Positions 1 to 33,093 of a DNA stretch of 64,000 nucleotides are shown one piece after another (position 1 is the first letter of the stretch; every line of letters begins with the position of its first letter). The stretch is from a virus. Under the pieces are notes generated by a model that saw only the letters and a program-made list of their open reading frames with translations, ran no database searches and was not told the DNA's origin. The stretch covers positions 49,645-113,644 of the IMG/VR virus record IMGVR_UViG_3300005826_000037, one strand, 5' to 3'. Both the position numbers and the translations under genes were made by a program.

Positions 1-840
1 CTTATTTATAAGAGACTGGAAACTATCGAATAATACAGGATCATTTAAGTTAGTAGTTGGAATATATGAAGCAGTCAATGTATCATTAGATACAAGAACA
101 CCACTATCAACTATGATTGTAAAACCATCACCCTCTCTAAATGGAGTTACTGACGAACCGCCGCTCTTTGTTTCATAAATTGCAAAACTCAATACACCAT
201 TAGAAACTGCAGTTCCATTTGCGGTCCAAATTATTGGATTTCCATTTGAATCAACCTTTGCCCCAGAAATCGATCCAAAAGCGATGAATTTTGCAGTATT
301 TTCTATTGGCAATCCTAACGCACTCCTCTGAACAGAAACACATCTAATTGTCCATGTTTCTGGAGGAGCATTAGTATCAACAAGGGATAAAGAAGCTAAA
401 TAACCATCACCAACATTTGTAGAAACTGGAGTATAATAAGCGCCACCTTGATCTCTCAAATGACCCCTTTGCAACTCTATTCTACCAGTAGTAATATCAA
501 CTCTGTAATCATATCTACTACTGAATGCGTTGCTATCTATGGTTGCTTCCAATCCTGTAAGCAAAACTCCATTTTTATACAATGAGGTTCTAGCAGAAAC
601 AACTGGATATGAGGACAATTGGAAATGTCTTCCATCTGCCCCTGTAGTTGAAGTGTATGCAGAGTTAAATCCATCAACCCCTCCTCCAACTGCTTGGGCA
701 ACAATGGTTTCGTCTGCCGAACCCTCACCCATAATTGCTGCTATACGAGTACCACCAGGAATTGATACTCCCCTGGATTGTGTTACTATATCTGTAAAAA
801 CTCCTGGTAGGACATTTGTTGCGCCTGGGATGTTTGCCAT
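1..840 (-). CDS. Tail sheath-like protein, N-terminal part (gene runs off the left edge; missing from the ORF track)
   Basis: ATG at 840 with upstream AAGGA; frame open to base 1: MANIPGATNVLPGVFTDIVTQSRGVSIPGGTRIAAIMGEG... The PGV...AAIxG start is typical of contractile sheath proteins, and it follows a tail-terminator-like gene. Confidence 0.75.
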   Translation of the reverse strand, partial: MANIPGATNVLPGVFTDIVTQSRGVSIPGGTRIAAIMGEGSADETIVAQAVGGGVDGFNSAYTSTTGADGRHFQLSSYPVVSARTSLYKNGVLLTGLEATIDSNAFSSRYDYRVDITTGRIELQRGHLRDQGGAYYTPVSTNVGDGYLASLSLVDTNAPPETWTIRCVSVQRSALGLPIENTAKFIAFGSISGAKVDSNGNPIIWTANGTAVSNGVLSFAIYETKSGGSSVTPFREGDGFTIIVDSGVLVSNDTLTASYIPTTNLNDPVLFDSFQSLINK

Positions 841-989
841 ATTAGAATCCTTATCACTCAGTTACATGTAGCTTCTATCACTAAAATGTATTAATATTCG
901 TATTTGGTACGATATATTAACATATTTTGTTTTTGACTTACTATTATTAAGTTGCCATCCATGAAACTAACCTAAAAACCATTATTAAT

Positions 990-1814
990 TTATGAGTTTA
1001 GTAGTATATCTAAAACACTAAGTTCTGTATTTATAGTTAAGTTTTGAGGGGCTGGAACTTCTGGTCTCGATATATCATCAAAAGAAACAGAAAAGAAAAT
1101 AGCATCTATTAAATTACCTATTGGAACTTCTCTTCTCCATTCTGTCCTTATATCTAATGTGATACTTTGCCTAAACAACTTATCATTTCTATCATCAGTT
1201 TCTGATGGTGCACCTATATTAGGTGGTTTAATTAACAAACCTACATCATATAATGAGTCAACTGTTATTTCAGAAAAACACATTCCAACTAATTGTGCTA
1301 AATCATCTCTTGCTCTTAAACTTCTAGAAAAAATATCTATTACTATAGAGCCTTCCCAAGCTCCAGCTGTAACAAAACTAACTGGTCTTGTTATAATTGA
1401 CTCATTACCATAACCATCTTCATATATTATTGTTTCGTTTCTTACTGTTCCCTTTTGTCTATTTATAGAAATTGGTACATATCTACTACCTCCACTTTTA
1501 ACTAAAATAGCGGGATAAAATATTCCATCATATCTATAATTCTCTCCTATATAAACTCTTGTACTCAGAAGATCTGATTCTTCTGCAGTAGAACCAAAAG
1601 CTCCTACTGGAAGGTCTGCTCCAAGAGGTATATCTGTATGATCAGTCGTATTAGGAAATCCCCACTGATCTTTTGAAAAATGATAATAACTGTCTTTTGA
1701 GAAAATATCTCTTAGAGTTGAAATTATAATCTCTTTTGGATACACAAGCATTGATGCTTGAATAATGTTATGTATCTCATATAAATCTGATTTAAAGACG
1801 TTATTTGTTGACAT
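990..1814 (-). CDS. Putative tail terminator / tail completion protein
   Basis: 274 aa; YPAILV...SIVIDIFSRSLRARDDLAQLV pattern; directly upstream of the sheath gene; 1 DGY. Confidence 0.55.
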   Translation of the reverse strand: MSTNNVFKSDLYEIHNIIQASMLVYPKEIIISTLRDIFSKDSYYHFSKDQWGFPNTTDHTDIPLGADLPVGAFGSTAEESDLLSTRVYIGENYRYDGIFYPAILVKSGGSRYVPISINRQKGTVRNETIIYEDGYGNESIITRPVSFVTAGAWEGSIVIDIFSRSLRARDDLAQLVGMCFSEITVDSLYDVGLLIKPPNIGAPSETDDRNDKLFRQSITLDIRTEWRREVPIGNLIDAIFFSVSFDDISRPEVPAPQNLTINTELSVLDILLNS

Positions 1815-1817
1815 TTA

Positions 1818-2804
1818 TTACCACCTGAAAGTCACATCAACATAATAAAAATCTGCATGTGCAGTAATAGTTGAAATTTCAGCCGTAAACTCAAGTGACA
1901 ATTTTATAGCTGAAGTTGCGGTGTTATGCTGATTATTAACTACCGTAGATGAAGGAGTTAAAACAGTACTATAATCTGTGTTCGAATTAGGATAATCCAC
2001 CACAACAATTTTATAAGAACCATTAGCATACAAAGCCATTTGCATGAAATATGCGGTTTTTGTTCCTGAATAAGTATTACATCCATGCGATGCAGTTGCA
2101 TTAATTAAACGTGTTCCATATGGCATTATACTTGACAAATTATAAAGTATACCAAAAGTAGTGTTATTAACTGTTGTAAAATCTATCAAAACATTTGAAA
2201 AATATCCATCATTATTATAAGCAATCACATTGGTGGTCGCTCCTGCTTGCGATATATGTATATTATCTCTATTATAGATCATACCATCTTCAATAAGTAG
2301 ACGTATTACTTCTGTCTGATTAATATTTCTATCAACAGTCCATTGAGATGAAACTCCCATAGTACCATTAATATTCAAATCAACTGTTTCAGTACTACTA
2401 CCATTAGTATAATAATTATCAAAATAATTGTTTGTTATAATACCGTTGCAACTATTTTCTAATCCGACTCCGGCAGGATAATTGTCCAAGAATTTAAAAC
2501 CAACATAATTGCCAATACTAACAACATCTCTATAAAGAAAATTATTGGTAACATTAAAATCTTCCCCATTACTTAACAATATTAGTACAATATCTTCTAC
2601 ATCAACTGTTGGTGTCGTTGTAGGGGTTGTTGTTTTGAAAATGTTATTTGTAATAACTGCAGAATTCCTAACCCATATTCCACCGTGCTGATACGCATAA
2701 ACCGTACCTTCAGTCGTACCATCATAAAAATTGCTAGATGTTATCATATTACCAGATATGATACATGAAGCACTTCCACCAATATTTACAGTTCCAGCAG
2801 GCAT
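1818..2804 (-). CDS. Beta-helix (pectin lyase-like) virion protein
   Basis: Repeating IxxN/ITNN strands; own AGGAG RBS before the ATG; 1 DGY. Confidence 0.55.
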   Translation of the reverse strand: MPAGTVNIGGSASCIISGNMITSSNFYDGTTEGTVYAYQHGGIWVRNSAVITNNIFKTTTPTTTPTVDVEDIVLILLSNGEDFNVTNNFLYRDVVSIGNYVGFKFLDNYPAGVGLENSCNGIITNNYFDNYYTNGSSTETVDLNINGTMGVSSQWTVDRNINQTEVIRLLIEDGMIYNRDNIHISQAGATTNVIAYNNDGYFSNVLIDFTTVNNTTFGILYNLSSIMPYGTRLINATASHGCNTYSGTKTAYFMQMALYANGSYKIVVVDYPNSNTDYSTVLTPSSTVVNNQHNTATSAIKLSLEFTAEISTITAHADFYYVDVTFRW

Positions 2805-2814: not shown

Positions 2815-5800
2815 TTATGTAGTGAACGTATAATCATCATATACCAATCCATCAACATGAACCGCATAGTAAGTTTTTTCATCAAAACTAGTACCAGTAC
2901 TATATGGGCTAATATATGCCAAAGATGTTGCAGATAATGTGTTGTTAATAATATGTATTGTTCCCTTTTTAGGCTCTTTTCTAACAAACTTAGACCCTAT
3001 ATAATCTGCAACTGATACTATTATCCAGGACGCTCTATTACCATCAATTACTACATATGAAGAAGTATATGCACAAGTATTAATTTGTTTAGCCTGAACA
3101 GATGAATACTCAGCAATTGAATATGCTAAACCTTTATAGTCAAGATTTGTAATTACATTACATGTGTTTCTAGAAATTGTTAACCCAAATTCTTTGTTGT
3201 TATCTCTTGTAATATTTGGAGATTCATTAATTATTCTTCTTCCTTCACCAATCCAATAACCAATTGCACCACAAATATTATCTTTGATTACACAATTTTG
3301 TGCAGCAAGATATGTCGGATACATAGCTTTTACATTGTTAGCAGTAGTATATGTTGTTGATGTCAAAACTATCATCTGATTTCTATCACATACATTTCTT
3401 GAAATCTCAAAATTTCTAATAGTAGGTGGTGTTTGCTCAGATATAGATGTGCTATTATTTATAACAGCTATTGCTGCTCTAAAATCATCAACAGTTCCTG
3501 AAGACTCTATATTATTAAACTTACAATTTGTTATTTTAACATTCTCTACTAAATCACCATTATCTAAATTAAAGTTTATAAATGTCAATCTGTTATCTGT
3601 ACTAATAAATGCATTTCCAAACTTAAACTCAGTATTATTTATTTCTATATTATACGCCTCTGTATTTGTAAAATACATAAATCCATTACCATTATTTATC
3701 AAATCATCAACATCATAGCTTATCTCTAAACCAGGAACATAAGTATTTTCAATATAACAATTTTTAACTAACATATCGTGAAAATAACTATTTTCTACTG
3801 AAATTGCTCTTCTAAAATTGCCACTAATTGAGCTTTCACTAAATACAAGATAGCTACTATTACCATAAAACTCATTAGTTATATAGAAAACATCACCAGG
3901 TCTATATGAACCATTATTAAAATTAACAGTAACATCACTGTTAATAAAACTGAAATTACTAATATCATCAAGATTAAATACTCTGCCACCTTCACTCGTT
4001 GGGCTTCCATAGGTTGCAGTTATACTACAGTTTTTAAAAGTTATATTGTTAGAAGATAATAACTGAGCCAATATATTATCAGTTGGCGTTGTTGATGGAT
4101 AAAAATAAATTGTACAATTTTCAAAAACTACATTGTTACTTAAAAATATTCCAAGTAGCTTCTCAAATGTAATTGTCATATTTCTTATCACAATATCATT
4201 GCCTGAGATAACTAAATTTTCACTAAAAGTTAATGATGATGTATTTCGACCATCAATATTTGCGCTATCTAATGTAATTGGTTTAGTTATTGTTTCTGCA
4301 ACTTCATTTATGATAATATTGTTATTGTGAGAACCACCATACTTTAACCAATTGAAAATTGATTCCACACTGTAAAAATTACCTTGTTTTGAATTATTGT
4401 TCAAAATAATTGTATCATTAGATTCATTATCATTTACAAATTTTCTAACATCATTCAATACAAGAGAAATACTAGAGCCGCTAACAGTAGATGAAACTAT
4501 ATAAAGAGGCGTCAAATCTTTTCTATTATTAACAAGATCAGAAAAAGTTATTGCTTCAATATAATATGAGGAAGTCGTTGCTGGATTATAAGCATTGAAG
4601 TTTCTATTTCCACTTGGAGTACTCAATATCGAATCATAATCAAGTGATGGAATTGCTTGAAAATCTCCCGAATTGCTTACACAAAGAATCCAATTTATAT
4701 TGTATAGTGTTGAGAAATAAATCTCTTTAATGATCGGTATAGATACCGTCTCATTATTCATATAGATTATTTTTCCGCCAACTAATGCAGAACCTCCAGA
4801 AAGATAGATCTGACCACTATTTGGATTAGATATAGGAGTCACATCTTGTGCATCAAATCCTTTAAAAACACCATTCTGATGAAGTAGCTTATCCGGAAGA
4901 GAAATATAATCTAAAGCTGATGTACTAAGTTCATCTTCACTAACATTTCCAAATTGTCTCTTATCAGTTACATAATTAATATAATTAGTTTCAGTATTAT
5001 ACTGACAACTAGCCACCATCATAATTTCTTTATCAGCACTAAGACTTGGAAATAATTGTATATCTACAACTTCTTCTGTTATGTTTGAAAAAGAACCATC
5101 CACAGGGAATAATACATCTATATAATCTACATTCGTCTCATCATAAAACCTTAGAACTTGACCAAGTCTTCCAGTTGTTGTAGGACCAATATGTGTTAAA
5201 TTAGTCCCATCATAAGACGCAAGATAACCATCAATCAAACCACTAGAAGAAACCAAACTATCTATATATAAAGATATCTTTGTTATCGAACTAAATTGAT
5301 ACCCTCTTAATTTGGGAGATATACCAATTAATTCCATTTTGCTTAATTCAACTGTCGTTAATCTTAATGGTATAGAATTTACTGTAATGTCACCAGTTCC
5401 ATTTGTAAATCTTCCACGTTCATGAGCAAATGTCTTTGCTTCCTCATCAACGTAAATTTCCAGATATCTCTTGAATGGGGATGCAGTAGTATAATCAGAC
5501 ATATTTTCAGAATTTACAGGCACTGAACCTGAATTGAAATAAATCCTAAAATGACCGCTACTTGCGCTTGTGTATGGTGAGGAACCTGTTCCATGTACAG
5601 CATCATATACAGTAACATCTGTGTAACAATCAACTCCACATTCTGTAAATACAACACTAGATACTACAAAACGTCCATAGTCTATATAATTAATAGTAGG
5701 AGACATCGGTTGAACCACAACAGTTGAACCTGGTCTAATATTAACTGATGATAATATATTATCTAAAATACGATATGTTGTACTTACTTTACCATTTGGT

Positions 5801-7698
5801 GCGGGAGTTTCAGATCTTGCAACGATATAACCATCCCAATAACCAAATCCATATCCATCTTGTGTCTGTCCTGACTCAAGAGTTAATTTATCTCTTTCAG
5901 TTCCATTAACATAGAAATTATTTCTATCAAGAGGAACATAGAGTTTTGTTGGATATAGTGCTTGAGCTGAAGAAGAATAACTTACAGAGTATGCAGGGCT
6001 AGATATTCCACCATTTAATGGTCCAAGACCAAGAGGATCTACTGGCTCTAATGTTCCACTTCCAAACAAACCAATTACATTATTAGGGTATGCATAATTA
6101 GTTTCTGACTCATCATAATCTCCAGCTGCATCAACTGCACCATCAAGCACTGAAAATGCAGCATTACTATATGGATCAGCAAGGGCGATACCAAATTCAC
6201 CTTGATATGAGAATGCTATAAATCTGTAGTTATATCCTGCTTTTCTAAAAGTATCATTAATTGTCTGCACAACAGTATCTAATGTATACTTTCCGGGAGT
6301 AACACCAAGGTTTCCTGTAACGTCTATTTCAGGCAAAACTACATATCCATCATCAGCATTTCCAGTAGGATATAATGCTAAATACAAAAGATAATGTGAA
6401 GAATCAATTAAATCTGCATTAAATCCGACACCAAGAGCCATTGCACCTGTTGGATTTGTAACTATTAAGCTTGCAGGTAATGATATCTCATCATTGTTTG
6501 CTGATGCTACAGCCAAAACCCCATATTTATTGTTATTATACAATGGTCTTTCAACCTTAGCATATCCATCAGTTGTGTAATATAGATTATTACTACTAAT
6601 TCTTACAAAAAATCTACTAGGAGTTCCTGGAATATACTTCTTCTCTTTGATAAGGAAAGGAATCTCAACTGTACCATAATTGATCCTTATTATATCTCCA
6701 ACCTTTGCTAAAGCAAATTGTGAGTCAAATAAGAAGCTTGATGTAGCAGATGAATTTGGAGTGAATTCTATAATGTCATCACCATATTCGATATTATCAA
6801 CAGGAGAGCTACTAGAACCATTATTTCTAAGATGTGTAGTAACTTGAGTTGATGGAACAATAGTTTGCCCACGTGCATCTGCAGTAAGAACTGCGGATCT
6901 AGAAGCTCTAGAAACACCATTAGAATACAGATTCTGAATTCTTGTTCCGTATAAAAAGATGCTAGCATCATCAAGGTGTTGGGCAAATAATTGCAAATCA
7001 TTTACTGTTTGTGGTATTACAGAAAATCTAGTTGTATCAAGGTAAATACCAGAAGATGTGTGAGCATAATCAGCAGGGTAAGTACCGCCATTATTTGTAG
7101 TTATTGAGATTGAAGACGTACCAGACCCATCAGACCATTGGTGATTGAGAACTTCAGAGTTCAATTCATTCAATGCTGTGTATGAGTCTGTATTATCTCT
7201 GTATGTTCTGTATCTACTAAGGAAATAATCTGTTGCACTTTCACTGACACTAATTCCACTAAGTGGATGCTTATAAGTTATACCAAGAATATGTGGTTCT
7301 AACTTTATTCCTGTTAAAGATATCCATGAAATAGAAGTATTTATATCACCAGCAAGATCTCTAGTATAATTAAATAAATCAGCAGTTTTATAATCAAGAG
7401 ATAATTTAGATTCAGGAATTCCTGCATTGTTCGCTATTTGTGGGTTTGTAATTGGTAGAGTAACTAAACCTAAACTTGTTAATGCAGATGGTTTTATATA
7501 TCCATCTGCTCCAATAGAAATCCCAAGCCTATTGGCAAGAGTACCTGCGCTTCCAGATAAACCCAATCCAAACTCAGCTTGCATATTAAATATGGCTTCG
7601 CGACATCCATTTATAGCTTCATCACCAATTTCAGTTATATTATTGTTAACTGGAGGAAGTGTTGTGTCATCATCATAATCGTTAGGGTAGTTACTCAT
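2815..7698 (-). CDS. Large (1627 aa) virion structural protein with C-terminal parallel beta-helix (fibre/spike or baseplate associated)
   Basis: Ser/Thr/Asn-rich; C-terminal repeats NVVFENCTI, NITFKNCSI, VKITNCKF; 6 DGY. Confidence 0.6.
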   Translation of the reverse strand: MSNYPNDYDDDTTLPPVNNNITEIGDEAINGCREAIFNMQAEFGLGLSGSAGTLANRLGISIGADGYIKPSALTSLGLVTLPITNPQIANNAGIPESKLSLDYKTADLFNYTRDLAGDINTSISWISLTGIKLEPHILGITYKHPLSGISVSESATDYFLSRYRTYRDNTDSYTALNELNSEVLNHQWSDGSGTSSISITTNNGGTYPADYAHTSSGIYLDTTRFSVIPQTVNDLQLFAQHLDDASIFLYGTRIQNLYSNGVSRASRSAVLTADARGQTIVPSTQVTTHLRNNGSSSSPVDNIEYGDDIIEFTPNSSATSSFLFDSQFALAKVGDIIRINYGTVEIPFLIKEKKYIPGTPSRFFVRISSNNLYYTTDGYAKVERPLYNNNKYGVLAVASANNDEISLPASLIVTNPTGAMALGVGFNADLIDSSHYLLYLALYPTGNADDGYVVLPEIDVTGNLGVTPGKYTLDTVVQTINDTFRKAGYNYRFIAFSYQGEFGIALADPYSNAAFSVLDGAVDAAGDYDESETNYAYPNNVIGLFGSGTLEPVDPLGLGPLNGGISSPAYSVSYSSSAQALYPTKLYVPLDRNNFYVNGTERDKLTLESGQTQDGYGFGYWDGYIVARSETPAPNGKVSTTYRILDNILSSVNIRPGSTVVVQPMSPTINYIDYGRFVVSSVVFTECGVDCYTDVTVYDAVHGTGSSPYTSASSGHFRIYFNSGSVPVNSENMSDYTTASPFKRYLEIYVDEEAKTFAHERGRFTNGTGDITVNSIPLRLTTVELSKMELIGISPKLRGYQFSSITKISLYIDSLVSSSGLIDGYLASYDGTNLTHIGPTTTGRLGQVLRFYDETNVDYIDVLFPVDGSFSNITEEVVDIQLFPSLSADKEIMMVASCQYNTETNYINYVTDKRQFGNVSEDELSTSALDYISLPDKLLHQNGVFKGFDAQDVTPISNPNSGQIYLSGGSALVGGKIIYMNNETVSIPIIKEIYFSTLYNINWILCVSNSGDFQAIPSLDYDSILSTPSGNRNFNAYNPATTSSYYIEAITFSDLVNNRKDLTPLYIVSSTVSGSSISLVLNDVRKFVNDNESNDTIILNNNSKQGNFYSVESIFNWLKYGGSHNNNIIINEVAETITKPITLDSANIDGRNTSSLTFSENLVISGNDIVIRNMTITFEKLLGIFLSNNVVFENCTIYFYPSTTPTDNILAQLLSSNNITFKNCSITATYGSPTSEGGRVFNLDDISNFSFINSDVTVNFNNGSYRPGDVFYITNEFYGNSSYLVFSESSISGNFRRAISVENSYFHDMLVKNCYIENTYVPGLEISYDVDDLINNGNGFMYFTNTEAYNIEINNTEFKFGNAFISTDNRLTFINFNLDNGDLVENVKITNCKFNNIESSGTVDDFRAAIAVINNSTSISEQTPPTIRNFEISRNVCDRNQMIVLTSTTYTTANNVKAMYPTYLAAQNCVIKDNICGAIGYWIGEGRRIINESPNITRDNNKEFGLTISRNTCNVITNLDYKGLAYSIAEYSSVQAKQINTCAYTSSYVVIDGNRASWIIVSVADYIGSKFVRKEPKKGTIHIINNTLSATSLAYISPYSTGTSFDEKTYYAVHVDGLVYDDYTFTT

Positions 7699-8134: not shown

Positions 8135-9577
8135 TTAAGCTACTTTAACTAAATCCATTTTAACATGAATGTTCCAGTATGAGGTAATACCACCAGTGGT
8201 ATTATATGAGGTCCTAATAACAATATCATTACCTGTAAGATTATATATAGGAGCGGCACTCCAAGTACCACCAGTAGATGAATGAACTGTAGTTATACCA
8301 GTTTGAGTTACAGAGCCTGTTATCCTATTTGTAGCAAGAATTTGTTTTTTCTGATAACAATTTCCATTACTACCAACACCAACTGCAGTAATTTCAATCA
8401 ATGCAGCAGAATATTGAGGCATTGTTATTGTCAAAACATCTACCGTCGCCGTAGTTGCTGTAGCATTTACCTGATATCCATCTCCAGGATTATCAAGATT
8501 GTCTCCTACTTTATAAGAATCGGCAAGTGCCTCTGATACTCCTAATGAATAATCATTATTATCAGTTTGTACTACACGAAGTTTTCCAGCAGTTGAATAT
8601 AATATAGAACCTGTATAATTTGGACCCCTTGTAGGTGTTGGTGATGAATTGCCAATATAAATAATTTTACTACCAGTATTTTCAGGTAATCTACTAGTAA
8701 GTGTCGTTGTGTCTGAACAAAATGCAACTACTTTTCTACTACCAATTTCTCCAATTGACTGAATTTCTTCTACAAATAATAAAATATCACTACTATTATT
8801 TGCCTGTGTACCAATCCAAACTCCTCCATGCAATTCAGAAGAAGAATACCCTCCTCCCAAATATAACCTTCCTCCTTTATCAACCGTAGAACCTTGAGCC
8901 CTAAGTTTTAAACCATTTCCAACTCCTGTTGTTCTAGAACTATAAAATCCAATATTATAACTATCTAAAATACTACCTTCAAATAATATATTTGAACAAT
9001 TTACAGTCAACACTGAATCTCCATCACCAGTTACACTGACAATTTCTATATTATTTGATGTTCCGCTTACATCTCCACCAACTACTAAATTTCCAGGAAC
9101 CCATTGACTTCCACTCCAATATAAAACATTATTTGTCGATGGAGAAGAACTACTAATAGCATTTCCTCTAAGTTTAATTACAGATACAGAATTATAAGAT
9201 CCACTAATATCACCCCCCAAAGAAACAGGTCCCCAACCAGAACCGTTATATCCTAATATCTGACCAGATGTAGGAGATGAAGATAATACCGGTGTTGCCT
9301 GTAATCTTGAGACTAATGGAGAAGAATAAGTTCCTCCCAAATCTCCTGTCAATTTTATTCCACCAGTTACTGATGCTGTTGCATTAGGGAATACTCCAGG
9401 AATATAACCAGAAATAGCTGTAAGTGCCGATTGTATATCTGTATATGGAGTTCCATCAATTGTTACAGAACAAGCAATTGCTCCGCCCAAATGTTGATAT
9501 GCGTATCCATCAACATGATTTTGAAAATCATATCGACTAGTTGCTAATTGCCCAATTCCCGGTCTATAATTTCCCAT
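8135..9577 (-). CDS. Tail fibre / whisker-like protein with GD(L/I/V)xG..W.P repeats
   Basis: Repeats GDLGGT..GQILGYNGSGWGP, GGDISGS..NNVLYWSGSQWVP, GGDVSGT; 2 DGY. Confidence 0.6.
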   Translation of the reverse strand: MGNYRPGIGQLATSRYDFQNHVDGYAYQHLGGAIACSVTIDGTPYTDIQSALTAISGYIPGVFPNATASVTGGIKLTGDLGGTYSSPLVSRLQATPVLSSSPTSGQILGYNGSGWGPVSLGGDISGSYNSVSVIKLRGNAISSSSPSTNNVLYWSGSQWVPGNLVVGGDVSGTSNNIEIVSVTGDGDSVLTVNCSNILFEGSILDSYNIGFYSSRTTGVGNGLKLRAQGSTVDKGGRLYLGGGYSSSELHGGVWIGTQANNSSDILLFVEEIQSIGEIGSRKVVAFCSDTTTLTSRLPENTGSKIIYIGNSSPTPTRGPNYTGSILYSTAGKLRVVQTDNNDYSLGVSEALADSYKVGDNLDNPGDGYQVNATATTATVDVLTITMPQYSAALIEITAVGVGSNGNCYQKKQILATNRITGSVTQTGITTVHSSTGGTWSAAPIYNLTGNDIVIRTSYNTTGGITSYWNIHVKMDLVKVA

Positions 9578-9588
9578 TATTTTATTCC

Positions 9589-11598
9589 TTAAGGTAACAC
9601 AATAGTGTGCGTATGACCCAATACAATCGATACAACACCTGCAATAATTTGATGATTATGTCCTTGTGAAACATTTGTAGTTTGATTTATTTGAGAAATT
9701 GATGTAATACCTTCGTTTACAACAATCTCATGAGTATGTGGCAGGATATTTGAAGCAACACCAATACTTGTATTCAACTTTGAAGGAAACATACTAGTAT
9801 CGCTAAATATTCTTATTTGATAAGCTGGATCAAACTTTCTAATTCTTTGCGCCCTAAATTTTTGACCGCCTTGCTGCCCAATCATAGTATTATTTCTAGT
9901 TACAGATAATACTTCATACCTATACTCTTCATTTCCATTAAGGTCATATAATACTATAATATCCCTATCTTTTATAGTAGGAACTGTAAGTGTCCAAAAT
10001 TCTGTCTGAAACTCAGACTCCAAACCAGCTTCTGTCATTTTTACATCTTCTTCGGTTGGTCCAGGTCTTACCAAAATTCTACCATCAGATCTTCTTGGAT
10101 TAAAATATTGTTCATATCCAATGACAAATTTAGTACCATGACATAATGGGCATCTATCATCTGGATACTCACTAGACTCAAGATAACAAGAGCAAGTTAT
10201 TCCTGTTCTAGTTCTCTTAATAAGAACTGCTTGTTTACCAGTATTATCTAAAAGAACCTCTTGACGTTGATTATTATGATCTTGAACAGAGAATCCTCTA
10301 AGTACATTATAATTTCCATACTTATCAATACATCCCATTTCTCCACCAATATAACTTCCAACACATGTTCCATTTAATAATTGAACTGGATCTGTTCTAT
10401 GATATCCGGCATAATCATACCTTGGAAAATCTATATTTTCTTCATCACTCACACTTAAATCAGATGTTAATAAATCTTTTGTTACTTGATGATATCCGTC
10501 CGTCGCTGTGTATGGATAATTGGGATATTCAAATCTTGACTCACACAAAAATATATTGTCATATTTTGTATCCTCTCCCGATACAAAATAAATAACAGCA
10601 GGATTCCAATATAAATCACCATCATAGCCATCTGTATTATGTAATGTAGCAGTAGTTCCGCTATACCCTCTACCTCCAGCAATTGTTTCAGATCCATCAA
10701 CACCAATGATAAATGAATCCCCTTCAACAAATGGATATCCATCATATTCAACTATTGAAAAACTAAATATTCCATTGGATATGTTATAACCATCAGCTGT
10801 CCAAATATATGGGTCTGAATATCCATCCCTTACAGCGCCAACATAAGGGTTTGTATAACCATCTTTAACATATCCATCAGTAGGATAAACAACTCCAGAA
10901 TATGACCCAACAGATATAAACTTTGCAGTTGATTCTATTGGATTTCCATATCCATCTTTTTGAACAGAAATACATTGTATTTTCCATGTTTCTGTTATTG
11001 CGCTAAGATCTTCCAGAGTTAAATTAGCTAGATATCCATCACCAACATTTCCATATGAAGGAAGATAATTAGATCCTCCTTGATCTATAAAATGAGCGCT
11101 GATAAACGTATCACCAGGAACACCTAATGTATTAGCTATAGAATTTGTAGTTGTATAATGAATTAATTCTGCACCAATTCTTACAACTCCTTCATCAGGA
11201 AAATCAGTAACATCCATTAGTGGGATTATTAAATCAGTACTTGTTATATTGTTCGCTAATAAACTACTAGGAACAATTCTTAAATTATCGTAAGCAACCA
11301 ATAAATTTGTTAAATCGGTCACTGACTCATCATATTCCACAGCTCTAACGGAAAAGAAATACAATTGTCCTGGAGTTAAATCAATGATGTTTGCTTCTGT
11401 AGCACCATCAATAGATACATACTTAACACCCTCAGAAAATACATCTTCCTTAATTGTAGAATAATAAATATAATAGGCGATACTATTTGTAGATATTGTT
11501 GGGTACGCTTGGTGCCACTTCAAATTAATGGTATAGCCATCGCCCAAGCTGGTTAAAGCATCTAAACCGCCAATTATAGGTGATGGATAAAAAACCAT
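9589..11598 (-). CDS. Multidomain neck / head-closure-like protein (FN3-like + sheath-paralogous domain + Zn finger + His-rich tail)
   Basis: N-terminal LKWxxA..YYIYY..LTPGQLYFFSVRA (FN3-like); CSC..CPLC; C-terminal HTH/HNH/HTH tripeptides; 10 DGY. Confidence 0.55.
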   Translation of the reverse strand: MVFYPSPIIGGLDALTSLGDGYTINLKWHQAYPTISTNSIAYYIYYSTIKEDVFSEGVKYVSIDGATEANIIDLTPGQLYFFSVRAVEYDESVTDLTNLLVAYDNLRIVPSSLLANNITSTDLIIPLMDVTDFPDEGVVRIGAELIHYTTTNSIANTLGVPGDTFISAHFIDQGGSNYLPSYGNVGDGYLANLTLEDLSAITETWKIQCISVQKDGYGNPIESTAKFISVGSYSGVVYPTDGYVKDGYTNPYVGAVRDGYSDPYIWTADGYNISNGIFSFSIVEYDGYPFVEGDSFIIGVDGSETIAGGRGYSGTTATLHNTDGYDGDLYWNPAVIYFVSGEDTKYDNIFLCESRFEYPNYPYTATDGYHQVTKDLLTSDLSVSDEENIDFPRYDYAGYHRTDPVQLLNGTCVGSYIGGEMGCIDKYGNYNVLRGFSVQDHNNQRQEVLLDNTGKQAVLIKRTRTGITCSCYLESSEYPDDRCPLCHGTKFVIGYEQYFNPRRSDGRILVRPGPTEEDVKMTEAGLESEFQTEFWTLTVPTIKDRDIIVLYDLNGNEEYRYEVLSVTRNNTMIGQQGGQKFRAQRIRKFDPAYQIRIFSDTSMFPSKLNTSIGVASNILPHTHEIVVNEGITSISQINQTTNVSQGHNHQIIAGVVSIVLGHTHTIVLP

Positions 11599-20809: not shown

Positions 20810-21993
20810 AAACTCTCATCAACACTAGTACAATAAAATGTAATTGTTAACATCTCACCATCAACACAAATATGATCGCCAGTTGTGACCCATAATTCCA
20901 TTCCATAAGTTGAATACAACTCTCTTGCTGTTGCATAATTAAATGGAATAGCCTGAACATTACTCTTCATTCCTCTGCATTTTCTTCTAAATTCTTTTAA
21001 CGGCAAAGATTTATCAGCCTCACTTGCACCAATTGCATTTACAGTTGGCAAAGCTCCACGAGCCTCTGTAATAATCTGAGAAACTCTGTGGTAATAATCT
21101 TCTTGTAACGGAATCTTTGTTAATGAAGGATATGGAGTAACATTCCATGTAGAATTTCTAAAAGTTAAATACATGCCAATATCAATAACAGTAGCCCAAT
21201 CTTCTTCACTTGGAACAGTTAATCCCCATGTATATCCATCCCATTGAACAACAGCACCATCATATCCCGTCCAATCACCAGTTGCAGAAGCTCCTACAAT
21301 ATATGCATCTCCCACATCAGGAGACACAGGAGGATCTGAATATGATGCAGAAAGAACATAACCTAAATCATTTGATCCTCTCATATACTGAGGAGCAAAT
21401 ACATCAACATAACCAACAACTATATATCCGAATCTAGTATTTAAAATACAATCCTGAGAAAAGTCAGACTCTGCATCTTCTATTCTTAAAGTCTTTCCAG
21501 GAGTTGGAACTAAATAAAATGTTGAATCTGTTGCATAATTAAAAGTTGCAGTGATTGTATTTCCTCTCATATCTGAGAAGAAATTAATCTCACCATTATC
21601 ATAGTCTATCCAATAATAACCATCAGTTGATTCAAATTTAAATGGAGGACAAACTGTCTGCTCAACACCATTTACTTTAACAATTACAGAATATCCATGA
21701 TCAGATTCATCAACCCATTTTTCTTGGTTGTGCATTCTTCCTGTAACCATATCAATCCAATCAATATGAGCAGAGTTAGTACTTTTCCATACATAACCAT
21801 CATAACCATCTTTAGCTTCTAATGCTTGGTCTTCTATTCTGGTAGAGCCTCCAAACCAAGTTGTTTTATCACAGAAATTATGACTACCAACAACTACTTC
21901 AGATCCAACACGAGGAAAATGTGCCATTTTAGGCACTCCATCTTCTTGGGTTACCTGTAAATTAATTACTGTTGGGGGAGAAATAAATCCCAT
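20806..21993 (-). CDS. Virion protein containing a DUF2793-like domain
   Basis: PPVSPDVGDAYIVGASATGDWTGYDGAVVQWDGYTW; 4 DGY. Confidence 0.6.
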   Translation of the reverse strand: MGFISPPTVINLQVTQEDGVPKMAHFPRVGSEVVVGSHNFCDKTTWFGGSTRIEDQALEAKDGYDGYVWKSTNSAHIDWIDMVTGRMHNQEKWVDESDHGYSVIVKVNGVEQTVCPPFKFESTDGYYWIDYDNGEINFFSDMRGNTITATFNYATDSTFYLVPTPGKTLRIEDAESDFSQDCILNTRFGYIVVGYVDVFAPQYMRGSNDLGYVLSASYSDPPVSPDVGDAYIVGASATGDWTGYDGAVVQWDGYTWGLTVPSEEDWATVIDIGMYLTFRNSTWNVTPYPSLTKIPLQEDYYHRVSQIITEARGALPTVNAIGASEADKSLPLKEFRRKCRGMKSNVQAIPFNYATARELYSTYGMELWVTTGDHICVDGEMLTITFYCTSVDESL

Positions 21994-23235: not shown

Positions 23236-23832
23236 TCAGCTTTCTGGATGGTCAAACCAACCAGACATTAAAAATGAAAAATCCCCAACTTCTACTGATT
23301 TTACTGTAATCCCAATACTTTGTCCAAATGGAATAATAATCGTGCCATCTAAAATAACATCATTAAGACCCATACAAAAAAATTGAGAAAAGGCAAATAA
23401 CCCATTTGTGGCTACAGTAATCCCATTACCAACCCCATCCCAAATTTGGCATTCAGATGGAGATGTCAAAGATTTACCAAAATTAGTACTACTCGGAGTA
23501 ATATCAGTATAATTTGCCGTTGGAGGATATGTGCCAACATAAAAAGCACCTCTAATAGGCTTATTATAATTTGTAGAACCACCATTAAAAGATAACATTA
23601 ATCTGTGCACATGAAACTCTCTGCTGCTATCTGTATTTTTAAATCTAAATATCAGATATTCATTAGTTCCTGGCAATGTTTTATCATAAACACCGTAAGT
23701 AAAGGAATACCCAGTTGTATTAGCAACGTTTGCCAATGTACTAGAGTTAATACCTTTGGTCCATAACCTTTGATCTTCCACCCTGGCAACAGAACCAGTT
23801 CCTGCGCCGTCTTTTACTCTAAAATCACTCAT
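23236..23832 (-). CDS. Virion appendage protein (trio member 3)
   Basis: N-terminal VKDGAGTGSVARV. Confidence 0.55.
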   Translation of the reverse strand: MSDFRVKDGAGTGSVARVEDQRLWTKGINSSTLANVANTTGYSFTYGVYDKTLPGTNEYLIFRFKNTDSSREFHVHRLMLSFNGGSTNYNKPIRGAFYVGTYPPTANYTDITPSSTNFGKSLTSPSECQIWDGVGNGITVATNGLFAFSQFFCMGLNDVILDGTIIIPFGQSIGITVKSVEVGDFSFLMSGWFDHPES

Positions 23833-24874
23833 CTATATCTCCAGTATCAACATCAAATTCATTCATCTCAGCAAGATGCTTCTCAATTCGTTTTAAAACC
23901 AAAGTAATCTCATTTAATGTATTAACAGCCTCCGCATCACTAGTAAATAATCTAATATTATCAGTGCCTTCACGCTCTACATTAATACTCGCATCATCTG
24001 CTTTAGGTCCTTTGAGAACAATGTTAGTGTTATCCTCAATATTAACATTGATTGGAAGAGAAGTATAATTACCAGCAATCTGAACAACATTATGATTTAA
24101 TAATCTTATACTATCCATATACAAATAAGTGTTTGATGTTTGATTATCAAGATTCCTAATATCTATATATATATTAAGTGTATTATATACTTCTGGCATA
24201 TGTCTTTCATGAAGAGCAACTTTTTTACCATCAACAACGCAAGCAGCATACCCAAAACCCATCTCAATTCTTACTTTCAAATTTGATGATGTTCTCAATT
24301 TATTTGGTATTGAAAAATCAGTTGATTGCACAGTTCCAACAGCCCCAGTACAACTGGTTGAAAATGTTGCCAAATCAGTTGCTGGTGATGTGTACTCTAA
24401 ATAGGCAAAACCACCGTGCATATTGGTAAAGCCAACTCTTGTTGTTTGACTTGATTTTCTTCCAAAAATACGAAGCTCAAACTCCATTATTGTTGGTAAA
24501 GTATGTCCTGGATGAGTAAGTGTTGCATAACCATCTGAGCCGGTTCCAAGTATTATAATCAGATTTGATGCTGAAACTAATACTGAAGAACCATTTGTAT
24601 CAGTTGTCCAATCAGAACTTAACGCGCTATTAAAATCAAAATAATAAGAACCCTCGTCAGTAAATACTTGACTCCTTGTTGCAATACCACCATGTTCATC
24701 TATAAGAAAGGGAGATTTCTCTCCTGCAGAAACAATTGGATAATCTAGAGAAGGATCTGGAAAATGCCCTCCAATACCAATTCCCTTTGGATATACAGAT
24801 ATATGATAACCATCAATTAAAACTGGATTACCATATCCATCATATAATATCACAGCAGGGCTATCATAACTCAT
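23825..24874 (-). CDS. Virion protein with lectin/ConA-like beta domain and C-terminal short coiled coil
   Basis: Beta-rich; C-terminal LNEITLVLKRIEKHLAEM; 3 DGY. Confidence 0.5.
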   Translation of the reverse strand: MSYDSPAVILYDGYGNPVLIDGYHISVYPKGIGIGGHFPDPSLDYPIVSAGEKSPFLIDEHGGIATRSQVFTDEGSYYFDFNSALSSDWTTDTNGSSVLVSASNLIIILGTGSDGYATLTHPGHTLPTIMEFELRIFGRKSSQTTRVGFTNMHGGFAYLEYTSPATDLATFSTSCTGAVGTVQSTDFSIPNKLRTSSNLKVRIEMGFGYAACVVDGKKVALHERHMPEVYNTLNIYIDIRNLDNQTSNTYLYMDSIRLLNHNVVQIAGNYTSLPINVNIEDNTNIVLKGPKADDASINVEREGTDNIRLFTSDAEAVNTLNEITLVLKRIEKHLAEMNEFDVDTGDIDE

Positions 24875-25617
24875 GCAATCGTCCTCGTTCTATTCACTTC
24901 AAAAACTCCATTATATGCAATAGTATCCGTTACAGTAGCCAATAAAACATCAGAGGCATCATATATCTTCCATGTTACTGTAGCAGGTGTTTTATTACTA
25001 TTATATGTATAAGTCTTCTCAACAATTTTATTTGTCTTTGCAATGCTTGTATACCAAATAACTGAAGTGGGAAATGGATCTGCTTCTGGTAAAACTTCTT
25101 TATAAGCTCCAGATGCAAACCCACTTGCAGGACCTTCATTGATAAAATGAATAAGTTGCCTTAAAGCAGTATGCTGATTTTCAGAAATAGAATTTATAGA
25201 TATTTCTACAATTGCATCTTGTACATTATGAGAAGATATTTTTGATAAACCTGTTGGATCAAATCCTATTTTACTAGAACCAACAGGATGCATAAAATAT
25301 ATGTAACCATCTGTTGAGTCATTAATATATCCATCAATAGATAATGTAAGATTAGTTAATATTTCATCTACAATATAATAACCATCAGCACTTCCACCGC
25401 TAGTTCCAGTAAGATAAATTCTATCTCCAGACTCTACTGCATTATCTCTACCATATAAAATGCCCTCATTATCTGGGGGCATATTTATTTCAACAACTGA
25501 AGTAGAACTAGTGGTGGATACCAAAGTAGAAGATAAATATACGTAATACCCGTCAGAAGCAAGTTCTTCGGAGTCAATAATGTCTAAATCACGTATATCC
25601 TCTTTTCTAATTGTCAT
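24871..25617 (-). CDS. Virion structural protein
   Basis: GDRIYLTG..DGYYIV beta module; 4 DGY. Confidence 0.55.
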   Translation of the reverse strand: MTIRKEDIRDLDIIDSEELASDGYYVYLSSTLVSTTSSTSVVEINMPPDNEGILYGRDNAVESGDRIYLTGTSGGSADGYYIVDEILTNLTLSIDGYINDSTDGYIYFMHPVGSSKIGFDPTGLSKISSHNVQDAIVEISINSISENQHTALRQLIHFINEGPASGFASGAYKEVLPEADPFPTSVIWYTSIAKTNKIVEKTYTYNSNKTPATVTWKIYDASDVLLATVTDTIAYNGVFEVNRTRTIA

Positions 25618-26334: not shown

Positions 26335-27822
26335 TCATGCATAAATCATGTAATTGATATGATCACCTGCCTTGACTTTATAATAGAAAGTTACCTGAGT
26401 TGTTGAGGTTTCTGCATAATCATTTCCATCAACAATTGGTCCTGGGTCTCTCAAAACACCTCTTGTAAACAAAACAAGATATTGACCGTTATTAGTTCCG
26501 TCAAGTGTGTATGTATTTGCTCCTGGAAGAGTGTGAGCTACGCCTGCATCAATATCAACAGTTACTCTTTCAATAACTCTTGTCATAGAAGCTGTTCCCA
26601 ATGCATCAGCCAACTCTTGCAAAGATTGTGTAATGGTGTATCCATCAGTCAAGATAGAGCCGGTGTAGTTTCTATCACCAATCTGCTCATTCAAGGTATT
26701 AAGAGCTTCAACAACACTTGGGGTTGCATCTGGAAGATTATTAAATGGATAATAAATACCAGTATTAGTCAAAAGACCTGCAAGACTAGTATCTCCATCG
26801 GATGTTCCAATTGTATCCAAGATATCACTAATATCTTGTTTCATTCCAGAATCACCAATGATACCATTGGTTAATGTAGTTCTGAAGTCAGTTTCATTGA
26901 TTTGGTCTACTCTTGTACGATAACCGTAATACAAATCAACTGTTGTTGGTTGGTATCCATCCCATGTATATGCTACGGAAGAGCTTAATGCATCGCCAAA
27001 TGGAACTGCTCTAAACTCAATTTCAACAGAGTTTGGTGATACACCTGTTGTTCCTGCACGAGTAAGACCGAAGATTCTGTAACCATCAGTAGAGCCACCA
27101 ACAGCAACTAATGCAGCCTCAGTTAATGGGTTGATGATTTCAACATAACATGCATCATAATTTCCAGCGTCTGCACCATCAGTGATTGGAACACCAGTTG
27201 TGTCTGTCGCATCAGCATGCTTCAAATTACCTGTATCAGTAATTGTTGTATAGCCATCGCCTTGACTGACTGCATCATCAGTGAACAATCTATTCATAAC
27301 CCATGCGTGGGCATCCATTGTCTTACTTGCAATGTTAGAAAGATTTGCAGGGACGTTTGTTCCAACAGCAGTTGGTCTTTGATAAGTTGGGATTGCTGCA
27401 GAATAAGCAACACCCTTGATTGCAGCACGGTCTGTACGCTCAAAATTAAGGTCGTCTTCCAAACTATATGGATATCTCTCTATCCAAGTTACATATCCAT
27501 CATTTGCAACAGCAGAAGCATTAGAGATATCAACAGATGTTGCTGAATTGTAAGTGATAATTAGGAAGGTTCCGTTATTTCCACCCTGAGAAGCTCCGGA
27601 AATGGAAAGGAAATTTCCAATAGAACTGACAGTCATTCCTGTCAATCCAGTAAGTGTTGCTACACCAGCAACAACAGAACCAATGTAACCATCAGTTCCA
27701 GTTTGACCACTAAGCGCAGAACCTAGACTATTAGGCTCGTCCGCTAAAGTCATTGAAGCATTCTTAGTTAGTGAACCAGCAATATCAAGAGCTTGGTCCA
27801 ACGCATTTTCTCTAGATGTCAT
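26335..27822 (-). CDS. Probable abundant virion structural protein (495 aa)
   Basis: Thr/Gly/Ala-rich; strong AGGAG RBS and structured leader; 6 DGY. Confidence 0.65.
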   Translation of the reverse strand: MTSRENALDQALDIAGSLTKNASMTLADEPNSLGSALSGQTGTDGYIGSVVAGVATLTGLTGMTVSSIGNFLSISGASQGGNNGTFLIITYNSATSVDISNASAVANDGYVTWIERYPYSLEDDLNFERTDRAAIKGVAYSAAIPTYQRPTAVGTNVPANLSNIASKTMDAHAWVMNRLFTDDAVSQGDGYTTITDTGNLKHADATDTTGVPITDGADAGNYDACYVEIINPLTEAALVAVGGSTDGYRIFGLTRAGTTGVSPNSVEIEFRAVPFGDALSSSVAYTWDGYQPTTVDLYYGYRTRVDQINETDFRTTLTNGIIGDSGMKQDISDILDTIGTSDGDTSLAGLLTNTGIYYPFNNLPDATPSVVEALNTLNEQIGDRNYTGSILTDGYTITQSLQELADALGTASMTRVIERVTVDIDAGVAHTLPGANTYTLDGTNNGQYLVLFTRGVLRDPGPIVDGNDYAETSTTQVTFYYKVKAGDHINYMIYA

Positions 27823-31288: not shown

Positions 31289-32299
31289 TTATTCGACAAC
31301 TACGCTTTTACGCCCGGCTGCGACGCCTCTTGGGTTTACAATGGCGAGACCAATAATCTCACTTACGACCCAACCCAGCTTAAGTTGCTTTGGTTCATCT
31401 GCTGGAAGTACTTCAATATCCTGACGAATTGGCATGACTCCAACGAATTCGGGGTCTGCCGCACCGTAGATCGTTCCGGGAGGGACAATCTTGCTCACCA
31501 TAATGTCTGAGCCCCAAATGTGAGCATAAAGACCAGTTTGAAGAACTTCACGCATGGTGACAGGATCGAAATCGCCGCCAGATACGCCTTGTCCACCACC
31601 AGATCCCCACTTAAGGATATCGGTGAACTCATTGATGTTCATGAAATACTTGGTTGTGACAAGGTCCCAGCGATCGATCTGTTGTTTAATTTCAACTAGG
31701 TCTCTCTTAAGCAATCCAGCATCAGCGATATCGGTAAGGGTGTTTTCAACGGAAGCAGCTGCATCCAATGCTGCGAAGACGTTTGCATCTTCTTGTGCCA
31801 TCATTTCTTGACGTGCCTTTTGGACAGCTCTGTCGATGACGTTGAATCTACGCCTTTTGACTTCTGCAATACGTACAGTTGGATTTGCGTAAAGTTCGAA
31901 CTCAGGAACTACAACACGGTCACCAAAAACTCTGGACTCTGGTCCAGTACCGTTGCTAGAAATAACAACAGCTGCAACATCGATGTCACGGTCATAAGTT
32001 GGCATTGCACCTTGTGGAAGAGGATCAACAACCAATGCTCTACGAGCAATTCCATGGTAGTCAAGGTTTCTACGGATTGGGTTTGCCATTGCTTGTGCAA
32101 GAGCAATCTTTCCATCTTGAGTCATGATAGCACGGGAGATAAGCTCATCACGCTTCTCATCGCTCAATTGTGGTTGTCCAGCGAGACCCATATTGGAAGG
32201 TTGGTTCTCTTCGAGAATTGCGGCATACTTTACAAGAGTTTGTAAAGCATCCTTTAAAGATCCGGCGTTCATTTCGCCATGGTTATTAAACATATTCAT
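31289..32299 (-). CDS. Major capsid protein (HK97-like fold)
   Basis: 336 aa; LAQAMANPIRRNLDY..ARRALVVDPL..PEFELYANP..QEDANVF; higher GC than neighbours, AGGAG RBS, terminator immediately after. Confidence 0.85.
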   Translation of the reverse strand: MNMFNNHGEMNAGSLKDALQTLVKYAAILEENQPSNMGLAGQPQLSDEKRDELISRAIMTQDGKIALAQAMANPIRRNLDYHGIARRALVVDPLPQGAMPTYDRDIDVAAVVISSNGTGPESRVFGDRVVVPEFELYANPTVRIAEVKRRRFNVIDRAVQKARQEMMAQEDANVFAALDAAASVENTLTDIADAGLLKRDLVEIKQQIDRWDLVTTKYFMNINEFTDILKWGSGGGQGVSGGDFDPVTMREVLQTGLYAHIWGSDIMVSKIVPPGTIYGAADPEFVGVMPIRQDIEVLPADEPKQLKLGWVVSEIIGLAIVNPRGVAAGRKSVVVE

Positions 32300-32322
32300 T
32301 ATTTATTCTCCTAGAATTTTTT

Positions 32323-32421
32323 GCCAGTCTTACCAGCTTTATTTATTTAAACTTAAAGGATAGGGGATCCCCGAATTAACAGGGTTTAATTTAGCCCACT
32401 CCCCTGGGCAGACTTAAGTCT
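32323..32421 (-). ncRNA. Candidate structured cis-regulatory leader RNA of the capsid gene
   Basis: GC-rich island with stems GCCCA/UGGGC and CCCUG/CGGGG, loop AGGGGA complementary to downstream UCCCCU, outer stem AGACUUAAG/UUUAAGUUU, then hairpin GCUGGU-AAG-ACUGGC. Confidence 0.5.
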
Positions 32422-32427
32422 TATTTA

Positions 32428-33093
32428 TCAGAATTGTGGGTTAAAGTGGAACACTGCGAAAGCATATGTTCTAGCACTTGACAATGCTGATGCTAGGTAG
32501 TTTGGAGTGGTTACCAAAGAACCGTTTGTTACGAATTCAACAAAGTGTCCAACAACAACTGTATTGGAATTTGCTAACGTTGATCCAACAGGAGTTAATT
32601 GTCCGCCCTTAAGAGTTGCTGGAGCAAATGTTAAGGAAGCACCAACTGCCAAAGTTGTATTGGTTGGTGTCAAACCATCAGCTGCTGCTGTGTCACATGC
32701 GTCCAAAGAGACTGCATAGAGACCTGGTTTATCCCAGCAAGTTACCTTGCCAGAGCCGGTTGCAGTGTGAGGTCCGAGGACAGCGCCACCTGTGGAAACT
32801 AATCCAACAGTTCCGCCAACAACAGATCCAAACAAAGTTCCATATCCAGATGTTCCTTCATCAGCCAACATCAAAGGACGAGAAGAAGTTGCGACTGTAG
32901 CAGTGACAACAGTTCTCTTATTTGGGGTTACATACCCATCAAAAACATCCCAAGATGCTTTATCTGTGGAAACACCTGTTACAACAGATGAAAAGGTTAC
33001 GATTTCTCCACCCTTGAGATATGTTGCTTCTGTATCAAGACCATCGAACTGACCCAATGGTTGAATTCCTGGTTGCAAAAGTTTTAAAGCCAT
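32428..33093 (-). CDS. Capsid decoration/cement-like protein
   Basis: Immediately upstream of the MCP; G/T/A-rich; paralog of 39867-40559; 1 DGY. Confidence 0.6.
   Translation of the reverse strand: MALKLLQPGIQPLGQFDGLDTEATYLKGGEIVTFSSVVTGVSTDKASWDVFDGYVTPNKRTVVTATVATSSRPLMLADEGTSGYGTLFGSVVGGTVGLVSTGGAVLGPHTATGSGKVTCWDKPGLYAVSLDACDTAAADGLTPTNTTLAVGASLTFAPATLKGGQLTPVGSTLANSNTVVVGHFVEFVTNGSLVTTPNYLASALSSARTYAFAVFHFNPQF

Follow-up and report, generated by a model that had tools for sequence, protein, structure and literature searches.

The tripeptide Asp-Gly-Tyr (DGY) is strongly overrepresented in virion proteins encoded by a 64,000-nt stretch of viral DNA (IMG/VR record IMGVR_UViG_3300005826_000037, positions 49,645 to 113,644), which is the final 64 kb of a 113.6-kb viral contig from an uncultured huge phage and is referred to as the window. 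Translating every substantial open reading frame (ORF) of the window and then counting in-frame DGY, we found 50 occurrences across 16 minus-strand proteins totalling 6,356 amino acids (aa). The excess is real and strong and is without explanation from any described system that we found, and literature searches returned no paper on a DGY motif in phages. Carrying the tag sets apart a clade of uncultured huge phages that are distant relatives of phage G. We tentatively suggest that DGY may be a putative tyrosine O-glycosylation sequon on presumed exposed turns, served by an adjacent sugar cassette.

Shuffling each protein separately gave a mean of 2.1 DGY and a maximum of 8 for the 16 carriers (2000 shuffles), and a mean of 2.8 and a maximum of 10 for all ORFs up to position 33,093 (Poisson P about 3e-44); by the same comparison DGY was by far the most enriched tripeptide in this part of the window. 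Tyr makes up 5.9% of the residues of the carriers, and Y follows 50 of their 82 DG dipeptides (61%). Between 33.2 and 64 kb the 27 ORFs contain 45 DG dipeptides and no DGY, which is not significant as a depletion, 1.8-2.0 being expected (P about 0.17). Over the whole contig there are 74 DGY versus 5.5-7.4 expected, all in minus-strand ORFs at contig positions 6,277-82,737, and the enrichment of exact DGY on virion proteins is 13-24 fold, roughly 15-20 times the chance level for the outer tail, neck, baseplate and fibre proteins. An earlier reading of the window from its letters, here called the sequence-only reading, had counted DGY by hand, estimated about 2 from composition and about 60% of DG dipeptides followed by Y, reported none among roughly 45 DG dipeptides from 33.2 to 64 kb, and proposed a tripeptide comparison against shuffled sequences. 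Its counts for the individual proteins were reproduced exactly, its other figures agree with ours, and the comparison places the DGY excess far beyond the shuffle maxima.

The nucleotide pattern GAYGGNTAY has 51 minus-strand matches, 50 of them in frame, and a single plus-strand match. Eight DGY codon combinations occur, in the proportions of background codon usage. When orthologue pairs were compared between this contig and three related genomes, the conserved DGY sites had differing codons in 15 of 22, 11 of 13 and 7 of 7 cases, and DGY was kept in 55%, 35% and 19%, versus 27%, 13% and 13% for other tripeptides. The in-frame matches, the background codon use and the codon differences between orthologues therefore argue for selection on the peptide, as the sequence-only reading had proposed, and exclude a nucleic-acid signal.

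Among the tripeptides compared over the contig the enrichment is restricted to the exact, ordered DGY, which was observed 74 times with 5.5 expected. Changing the last residue abolishes the excess (DGF 5 observed and 4.8 expected, DGW 0 and 1.0), and the same is seen for the first (NGY 9 and 5.8, EGY 1 and 4.2), the second (DAY 4 and 4.4, DSY 7 and 6.6) and the reversed order (YGD 4 and 5.5). This exactness is repeated within two protein families, fam1 and fam2, represented in the window by the proteins at 26335..27822 and 24871..25617, respectively. The residues flanking DGY are heterogeneous, except that Thr is favoured at -1 (19 of 74). In alignments with paralogues and internal repeats only 4 of the 74 sites have a DGY as counterpart, and the Pfam and PHROG matches of the carriers are few and differ between carriers. 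DGY is a convergent short linear motif and not a repeat domain, a claim of the sequence-only reading that paralogy leaves intact.

All carriers in the window are on the minus strand. The tail sheath has its N-terminal 280 of 923 aa in the window (1..840, one DGY) and the rest outside it, upstream; the whole protein has three DGY (aa 145, 417 and 504), none of them within the conserved C-terminal core that the PHROG tail sheath match covers (aa 746-918). It is followed by a 274-aa protein of the virion block (990..1814), whose single DGY is conserved in two orthologues, a 328-aa protein (1818..2804) with one DGY, a 1627-aa fibre-like protein (2815..7698) with six, of which orthologues keep some and gain or lose others, and a 480-aa protein (8135..9577) with two and a weak DUF5907/minor-tail repeat match. 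The 669-aa protein at 9589..11598 has ten DGY and a domain paralogous to sheath aa 127-245. One DGY is common to the two copies of this domain and the 669-aa copy gained six more, the extra sites having arisen by substitution (RSAL to KDGY, ANGT to ADGY) and an insertion.

The single DGY of a 299-aa protein (13672..14571) is invariant across three orthologues while its flanks are variable. The densest carrier, a small protein of 150 aa from a TTG start (15421..15873), has four DGY inside 17 residues and one more. Two paralogues of 102 aa (17477..17785) and 110 aa (18840..19172) have one DGY each, at the same aligned position, and a 329-aa protein (17849..18838) has three. Further carriers are a 395-aa protein with a DUF2793 domain (20806..21993; four DGY), a 349-aa protein (23825..24874; three DGY), the 248-aa fam2 protein (four DGY) and the 495-aa fam1 protein (six DGY). 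The gene of the last carrier, a 221-aa protein (32428..33093; one DGY, two in an orthologue), directly precedes the major capsid protein (MCP) gene in transcription order, the same position as that of the phage G capsid-decoration gene gp26, and gene position alone makes its product a probable head-decoration protein. Elsewhere on the contig, a 1365-aa baseplate wedge protein has two DGY, and fibre-like proteins of 1304 aa and 2392 aa have five and ten.

The MCP (31289..32299, minus strand; 53% identical to phage G gp27) has no DGY. The same applies to the head, packaging and other genes at 33202..64000 (minus strand), with a protease-domain protein (42865-46341), the portal (52301-54193) and the terminase large subunit (54259-57192), all PHROG assignments, and to a tube-like protein (weak PHROG match) and a tape-measure-like protein, the latter recognised by size, position and low Tyr content alone. 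DGY is also absent from the plus-strand genes inside the virion module, which are three LAGLIDADG nucleases, a 2H phosphoesterase and a CCA-adding enzyme, and from a GIY-YIG nuclease and a patatin-like lipase on the minus strand. Hence the MCP and the interspersed enzymes are each free of DGY, as had been noted before. The description of the carriers as external virion proteins is supported in part: sheath, baseplate wedge and fibre-like proteins are tagged, and the MCP, portal, protease-domain, tube-like and tape-measure-like proteins are not. The contrast between peripheral and core proteins stands, the MCP being exposed and yet untagged.

AlphaFold models were built from alignments of fam1 and fam2, with a predicted local distance difference test (pLDDT) of 74.5 and 81.9, respectively. 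In both models the D-G was mostly in coil by secondary structure, and Y opened the next beta strand at three of the four sites in fam2 and two of the six in fam1 (5 of 10 together); at a third fam1 site Y was one residue ahead of the next strand. In the models DGY thus usually lies at loop-to-strand boundaries, on turns presumed exposed. The sequence-only reading had expected solvent-exposed beta-turns, and of this the models show a turn or coil at most D-G pairs, with Y at a strand start in half of the cases. Where fam1 homologues lack DGY at a column, the third position was mostly polar (S, N, D, K/E/H, Q), and it was aromatic or hydrophobic at few columns only. Foldseek searches with both models gave no informative fold match.

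Related IMG/VR contigs have 63-73 of the 97 ORFs of this contig in common, and the virion blocks of relatives contain 75 DGY versus 7.1 expected, 57 versus 7.5 and 76 versus 8.7 (8-13 fold). The fam1 search returned 507 homologues; 112 aligned ones have a mean of 2.9 DGY versus 0.15 expected, distributed over 22 alignment columns, and 23 have none. For fam2, 120 homologues have a mean of 1.36 versus 0.07 expected, with 47 having none. DGT and DGY alternate at the main two fam2 columns, and at several sites of fam1 and fam2 the D-G turn is ancestral and T, Q or E alone was replaced by Y. Among homologues the DGY density is kept while the site positions turn over.

Orthologues in other phage lineages have no DGY, the counts going from six to zero in fam1, from four to zero in fam2 and from three to zero in the protein at 23825-24874, the last in genome G007. 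The zero-DGY family members that could be traced (G007, G010) belong to genomes sharing 4-15 of 97 ORFs with the contig, and the DGY-poor genomes show no genome-wide enrichment (observed/expected 23/15.9, 15/9.9, 8/7.7, 8/5.5 and 8/9.9). The rows without DGY fall into three groups on the fam1 tree, nested among rows that have it, which forces at least two state changes. As the traced zero-DGY members are found in unenriched genomes and the zero-DGY groups are nested on the tree, DGY follows the genome background and not gene history. Since the folds do without it, a factor or pressure particular to the lineage is suggested to act in trans. These results support DGY as an addition specific to the lineage, which the folds do not require. 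The fam1 proteins are 54-60% identical in genomes otherwise sharing 4-15 of 97 ORFs with the contig, and are therefore unusually conserved or exchanged between huge-phage lineages.

A scan of viral contigs for dense DGY triplets established no independent lineage; the strongly enriched matches were low-completeness fragments, probably pieces of huge phages, and small complete phages showed local repeats only. GenBank phages searched with fam1 gave no match. Phage G (Bacillus/Lysinibacillus) is the nearest and only cultured relative. It is like the phages of the clade in its related MCP (53% identity) and in a DGY excess in the very large proteins gp420-gp431 (record 316,783-347,675), which have 14 DGY versus 2.1 expected (shuffle maximum 9 in 2000). 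It is unlike them in its much weaker DGY signal and in having no fam1 homologue and no orthologue of the family 2 glycosyltransferase (GT2) described below.

The candidate reader of DGY is a sugar cassette 36-43 kb upstream of the window start in the same operon. In contig coordinates it consists of a dTDP-glucose 4,6-dehydratase, RmlB (6277-8265; TIGR01181, 336 bits with both halves summed), a first GT2 (8269-9099), a strongly conserved protein of 326 aa whose N terminus has a hydrophobic segment (9116-10096), a second GT2 (10165-10872), a zinc-finger protein and a GT4/GT1 (12522-13661). RmlB catalyses the first committed step to dTDP-6-deoxyhexoses, and the cassette enzymes are small GT-A/GT-B types with no obvious membrane domains. 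The cassette adjoins the two fibre-like genes that encode the 1304-aa and 2392-aa proteins; all of them share one strand and are separated by a few to about 100 bases, and the cassette has the same position in genomes G015, G017 and G003. The RmlB gene is interrupted by inserted sequence that matches an intein-splicing domain (Pfam, 1.6e-5). The 326-aa protein has 351 homologues, the best 120 being at least 51% identical, and no Pfam or NCBIfam match; read by eye, its consensus has the N-terminal hydrophobic segment and then a beta-rich domain. Beyond the cassette are a tubulin/TubZ-like GTPase (contig 4842-6218) and a GH25 lysozyme (contig 3817-4575).

We tested nine long DGY-rich records and five complete DGY-poor genomes for GT2 domains over the Pfam cut-off and found them in all nine of the former and in none of the latter. 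The second GT2 has an orthologue in 17 DGY-rich records and in no DGY-poor one. The sequence-only reading had proposed that DGY enrichment be compared with the presence of a specific enzyme, and the GT2 orthologue is confined to DGY-rich records, in a manner that is inseparable from clade membership. A Pfam screen of the conserved non-virion genes of the clade (58 of 63) returned replication, repair, translation and chaperone genes. Kinase, Fic, sulfotransferase, tyrosinase/laccase and protein isoaspartate methyltransferase (PIMT) domains were absent among the best 25 of 37 and best 25 of 53 families, and glycosyltransferases are the sole modification enzymes found adjoining carriers. The conserved genes, as seen in G015, include homologues of trigger factor, DnaJ, peptide deformylase, methionine aminopeptidase, IF-1 and ribosomal protein S21.

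Two other routes to the reader were followed. Gene presence and absence in G015, G017 and G003 versus G010, G021 and G022 left 99 candidates; G007 and G018 were added to the genomes after this comparison. The DGY-poor genomes are other lineages with 4-15 of the 97 ORFs, and the contrast therefore singles out no reader. The genes beside the second fibre cluster in G015 were considered as modifiers and are nucleotide-metabolism enzymes instead.

As RmlB, two GT2 enzymes and a GT4 are found in the same operon, Tyr O-glycosylation is the best reading, the link being circumstantial. DGY would then be a short linear recognition motif on the outer domains of the sheath and on neck, baseplate, fibres and the probable head-decoration protein, and a lineage-specific factor would read the exact tripeptide. 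The reader would most likely be the late-operon cassette of the phage (dTDP-glucose 4,6-dehydratase, two GT2 and one GT4), which may act in the cytoplasm, ahead of assembly or in its course, and link a glycan with a 6-deoxyhexose to the Tyr hydroxyl; the result would be a sugar coat over the tail. We infer that the cassette acts on proteins and that Tyr is the acceptor, as well as the role of the coat. That DGY is the sequon of a dedicated phage-encoded cytoplasmic system of this kind, placing a deoxyhexose-containing glycan on tails, necks and fibres, seems possible and is a little more doubtful than the general suggestion of a Tyr sequon. The sequence-only reading had proposed either a modification sequon or a docking site. 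Selection on the peptide, convergence and the lineage overlay agree with this and the cassette fits glycosylation, while the link between cassette and motif could not be separated from the clade.

Several observations weigh against this glycosylation proposal. The co-occurrence of cassette and DGY is confounded with the clade, the DGY-poor genomes having only 4-15 of the 97 contig ORFs, and 99 genes of G015 are common to G017 and G003 and absent from three DGY-poor genomes. G035, rated complete and moderately DGY-rich, is without the GT2 orthologue and has other GT2 domains, and G072 has GT2 genes and no DGY enrichment. Phage G has no GT2 over the cut-off and no orthologue of the cassette GT2, yet has a weak DGY excess. 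The cassette includes a conserved membrane-anchored protein, its glycosyltransferases gave no match to a known protein-glycosyltransferase family in Pfam, NCBIfam and PDB sequence searches, and it could equally modify cell-wall polymers. Finally, non-virion proteins of DGY-rich genomes contain 44 DGY versus 30.5 expected (1.44, the DGY-poor genomes having 1.27), so that DGY is not avoided outside the virion blocks and a harmful promiscuous cytoplasmic enzyme is not indicated.

This lack of avoidance is what would be expected if the cytoplasm has no reader at all, and it thereby favours direct adhesion, in which Asp/Tyr pairs would bind a host surface polymer (polysaccharide, teichoic acid) weakly and let the tail stick and scan with no enzyme involved. 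The peripheral carriers, the turn and strand-start positions and the density kept despite position turnover suit adhesion as well, and pairs of an aromatic and an acidic residue are typical of sugar-binding sites. For such a purpose DGW, DGF, NGY or DSY should do too, yet exact DGY alone is enriched, and sheath and neck are odd places for receptor contact; we consider adhesion unlikely. The same exactness speaks against an intrinsic structural device, where the D-G turn and Tyr would stabilise beta hairpins and make the particle robust with nothing reading DGY. The usual coil at D-G, the strand starts with Y at 5 of 10 modelled sites, and the sites where an ancestral D-G turn acquired Y alone in place of T, Q or E are in its favour. 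However, DGF, DGW and NGY should serve equally and are at background, the same folds occur in other lineages without the motif, and beta-rich core virion proteins (MCP, tube-like) have none, which makes this explanation a little less likely than adhesion.

An exact three-residue specificity suits a protein pocket, and the tag is confined to virion proteins, as would be the case for a docking or assembly tag by which a phage protein binds DGY to decorate, cement or help fold beta-rich virion proteins. The binder could be a high-copy accessory protein, a fibre chaperone or the DnaJ-like or trigger-factor-like chaperones of the clade, and the trigger-factor, DnaJ, peptide deformylase and methionine aminopeptidase homologues in the clade core favour this possibility at the expense of glycosylation. 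On the other hand, a fast site turnover is awkward for a stoichiometric structural contact, the motifs of DnaJ and trigger factor disfavour acidic residues, and no candidate binder was identified, hence we hold docking to be improbable, slightly more so than a structural device. A requirement for exactly D, G and Y would also suit another chemistry, either Tyr phosphorylation, nucleotidylation, sulfation or an oxidative cross-link (dityrosine or dihydroxyphenylalanine), or a succinimide or isoaspartate timer or cross-link at Asp-Gly, as Asp-Gly is the most succinimide-prone pair and Tyr a versatile acceptor. The enzymes for this were absent among the best-scoring families given above, with only glycosyltransferases adjoining the carriers, and we give such chemistry the smallest share among the explanations in which the peptide matters. 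A nucleic-acid signal (restriction/methylation or a pause site) could draw on the strong strand bias of 51 versus 1. With 50 of 51 matches in one reading frame, wobble positions that follow background usage and differ between orthologues, shuffles that never exceed 10, and 4 of 74 sites being paralogous, such a signal and a by-product of composition or repeats are effectively refuted.

If DGY is indeed a glycosylation sequon, it may be compared with known systems. Short sequons are N-X-S/T, the D/E-X-N-X-S/T of Campylobacter PglB and the D-(S/T)-(A/I/L/V/M/T) of Bacteroidota O-glycosylation. Like DGY they comprise three to five residues, with an acidic residue two before the acceptor (PglB) or beside it, and the Asp of DGY, two residues ahead of the presumed acceptor, recalls the PglB sequon. 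They are likewise scattered on many unrelated surface proteins, with sites gained and lost and density kept. In contrast, they receive lipid-linked glycans moved outside the cytoplasm onto Asn, Ser or Thr, whereas the presumed acceptor in the huge phage is Tyr and no oligosaccharyltransferase came to light there, no search being aimed at one or at Wzy_C or flippase families. A Tyr acceptor, here presumed, on a surface array is shared with the S-layer proteins of Firmicutes, and the huge phage has RmlB; we know of no DGY consensus for S-layer Tyr glycosylation. In the S-layer proteins (Paenibacillus alvei SpaA, Thermoanaerobacter) the Tyr O-glycans are attached via a rhamnose-containing adaptor or linker (PMC2943079). 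Unlike in the system proposed here, the glycans of S-layers are assembled on a lipid carrier, and at secretion an O-oligosaccharyltransferase moves them onto two to four sites of each protein. The cytoplasmic assembly of virion proteins speaks against a lipid-linked route of the S-layer type.

The virions of mycobacteriophages (Che8, Rita) are glycosylated by phage-encoded glycosyltransferases (Freeman et al. 2023, as cited in PMC11256854). Phage-encoded glycosyltransferases, glycans made in the cytoplasm and placed on virion proteins (here proposed) and a possible glycan shield are the points of likeness. According to PMC11256854 it is the major capsid protein that bears the glycans there, and these phages are not known to use an exact tripeptide sequon. 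In the huge phage the MCP is DGY-free and the tag is found on proteins of the tail, neck, baseplate and fibres; Tyr is the presumed acceptor, and the system is proposed from sequence alone. A substrate of the mycobacteriophage type was thus not found here, neither the MCP nor the tube-like protein having DGY, and any glycosylation would be aimed at other proteins.

Further we made some observations on other genes in and near the virion module. The head-module proteins at 33202-64000 are Tyr-poor and have tripeptide excesses of their own, PAP (14 versus 1.5 expected), APP (9 versus 1.5) and GGG (14 versus 2.3). The LAGLIDADG homing endonucleases in the virion module (12170-13009, 14612-15442 and 40616-41575, all plus strand) are paralogous, and the GIY-YIG nuclease is a GIY-YIG/NUMOD3 endonuclease (20042-20809, minus strand). 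The 2H phosphoesterase (13050-13622, plus strand) belongs to the LigT/2'-5' RNA ligase superfamily and matches the anti-CBASS protein Acb1 below threshold; it is a possible candidate for a cyclic-nucleotide-degrading counter-defence protein. A CCA-adding tRNA nucleotidyltransferase is encoded among head and neck genes (29349-30608, plus strand), and ARAGORN found no tRNA genes in the window. The patatin-like phospholipase gene (19194-20057, minus strand) lies within the virion block, and a transposase of insertion-sequence type (contig 45695-46879; phrog_506, E 1.6e-125) lies between the tape-measure-like and tube-like tail genes.

The two carrier families have about 500 homologues each, from many metagenomes, and if something reads DGY it would be an undescribed virion-surface recognition code in a widespread group of huge phages. 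Even without an enzyme as reader, the convergent gain of one exact tripeptide at dozens of turns is out of the ordinary and calls for a physical explanation. Should DGY be a Tyr sequon, phages would have their first case of virion glycosylation directed by a sequon, and Tyr glycosylation its first defined sequon in any system; the tag and its enzymes would then make a small, transferable set for glyco-engineering. It would also mean that tail glycan coats exist outside the mycobacteriophages, which would bear on the host recognition, particle stability and environmental persistence of these phages.

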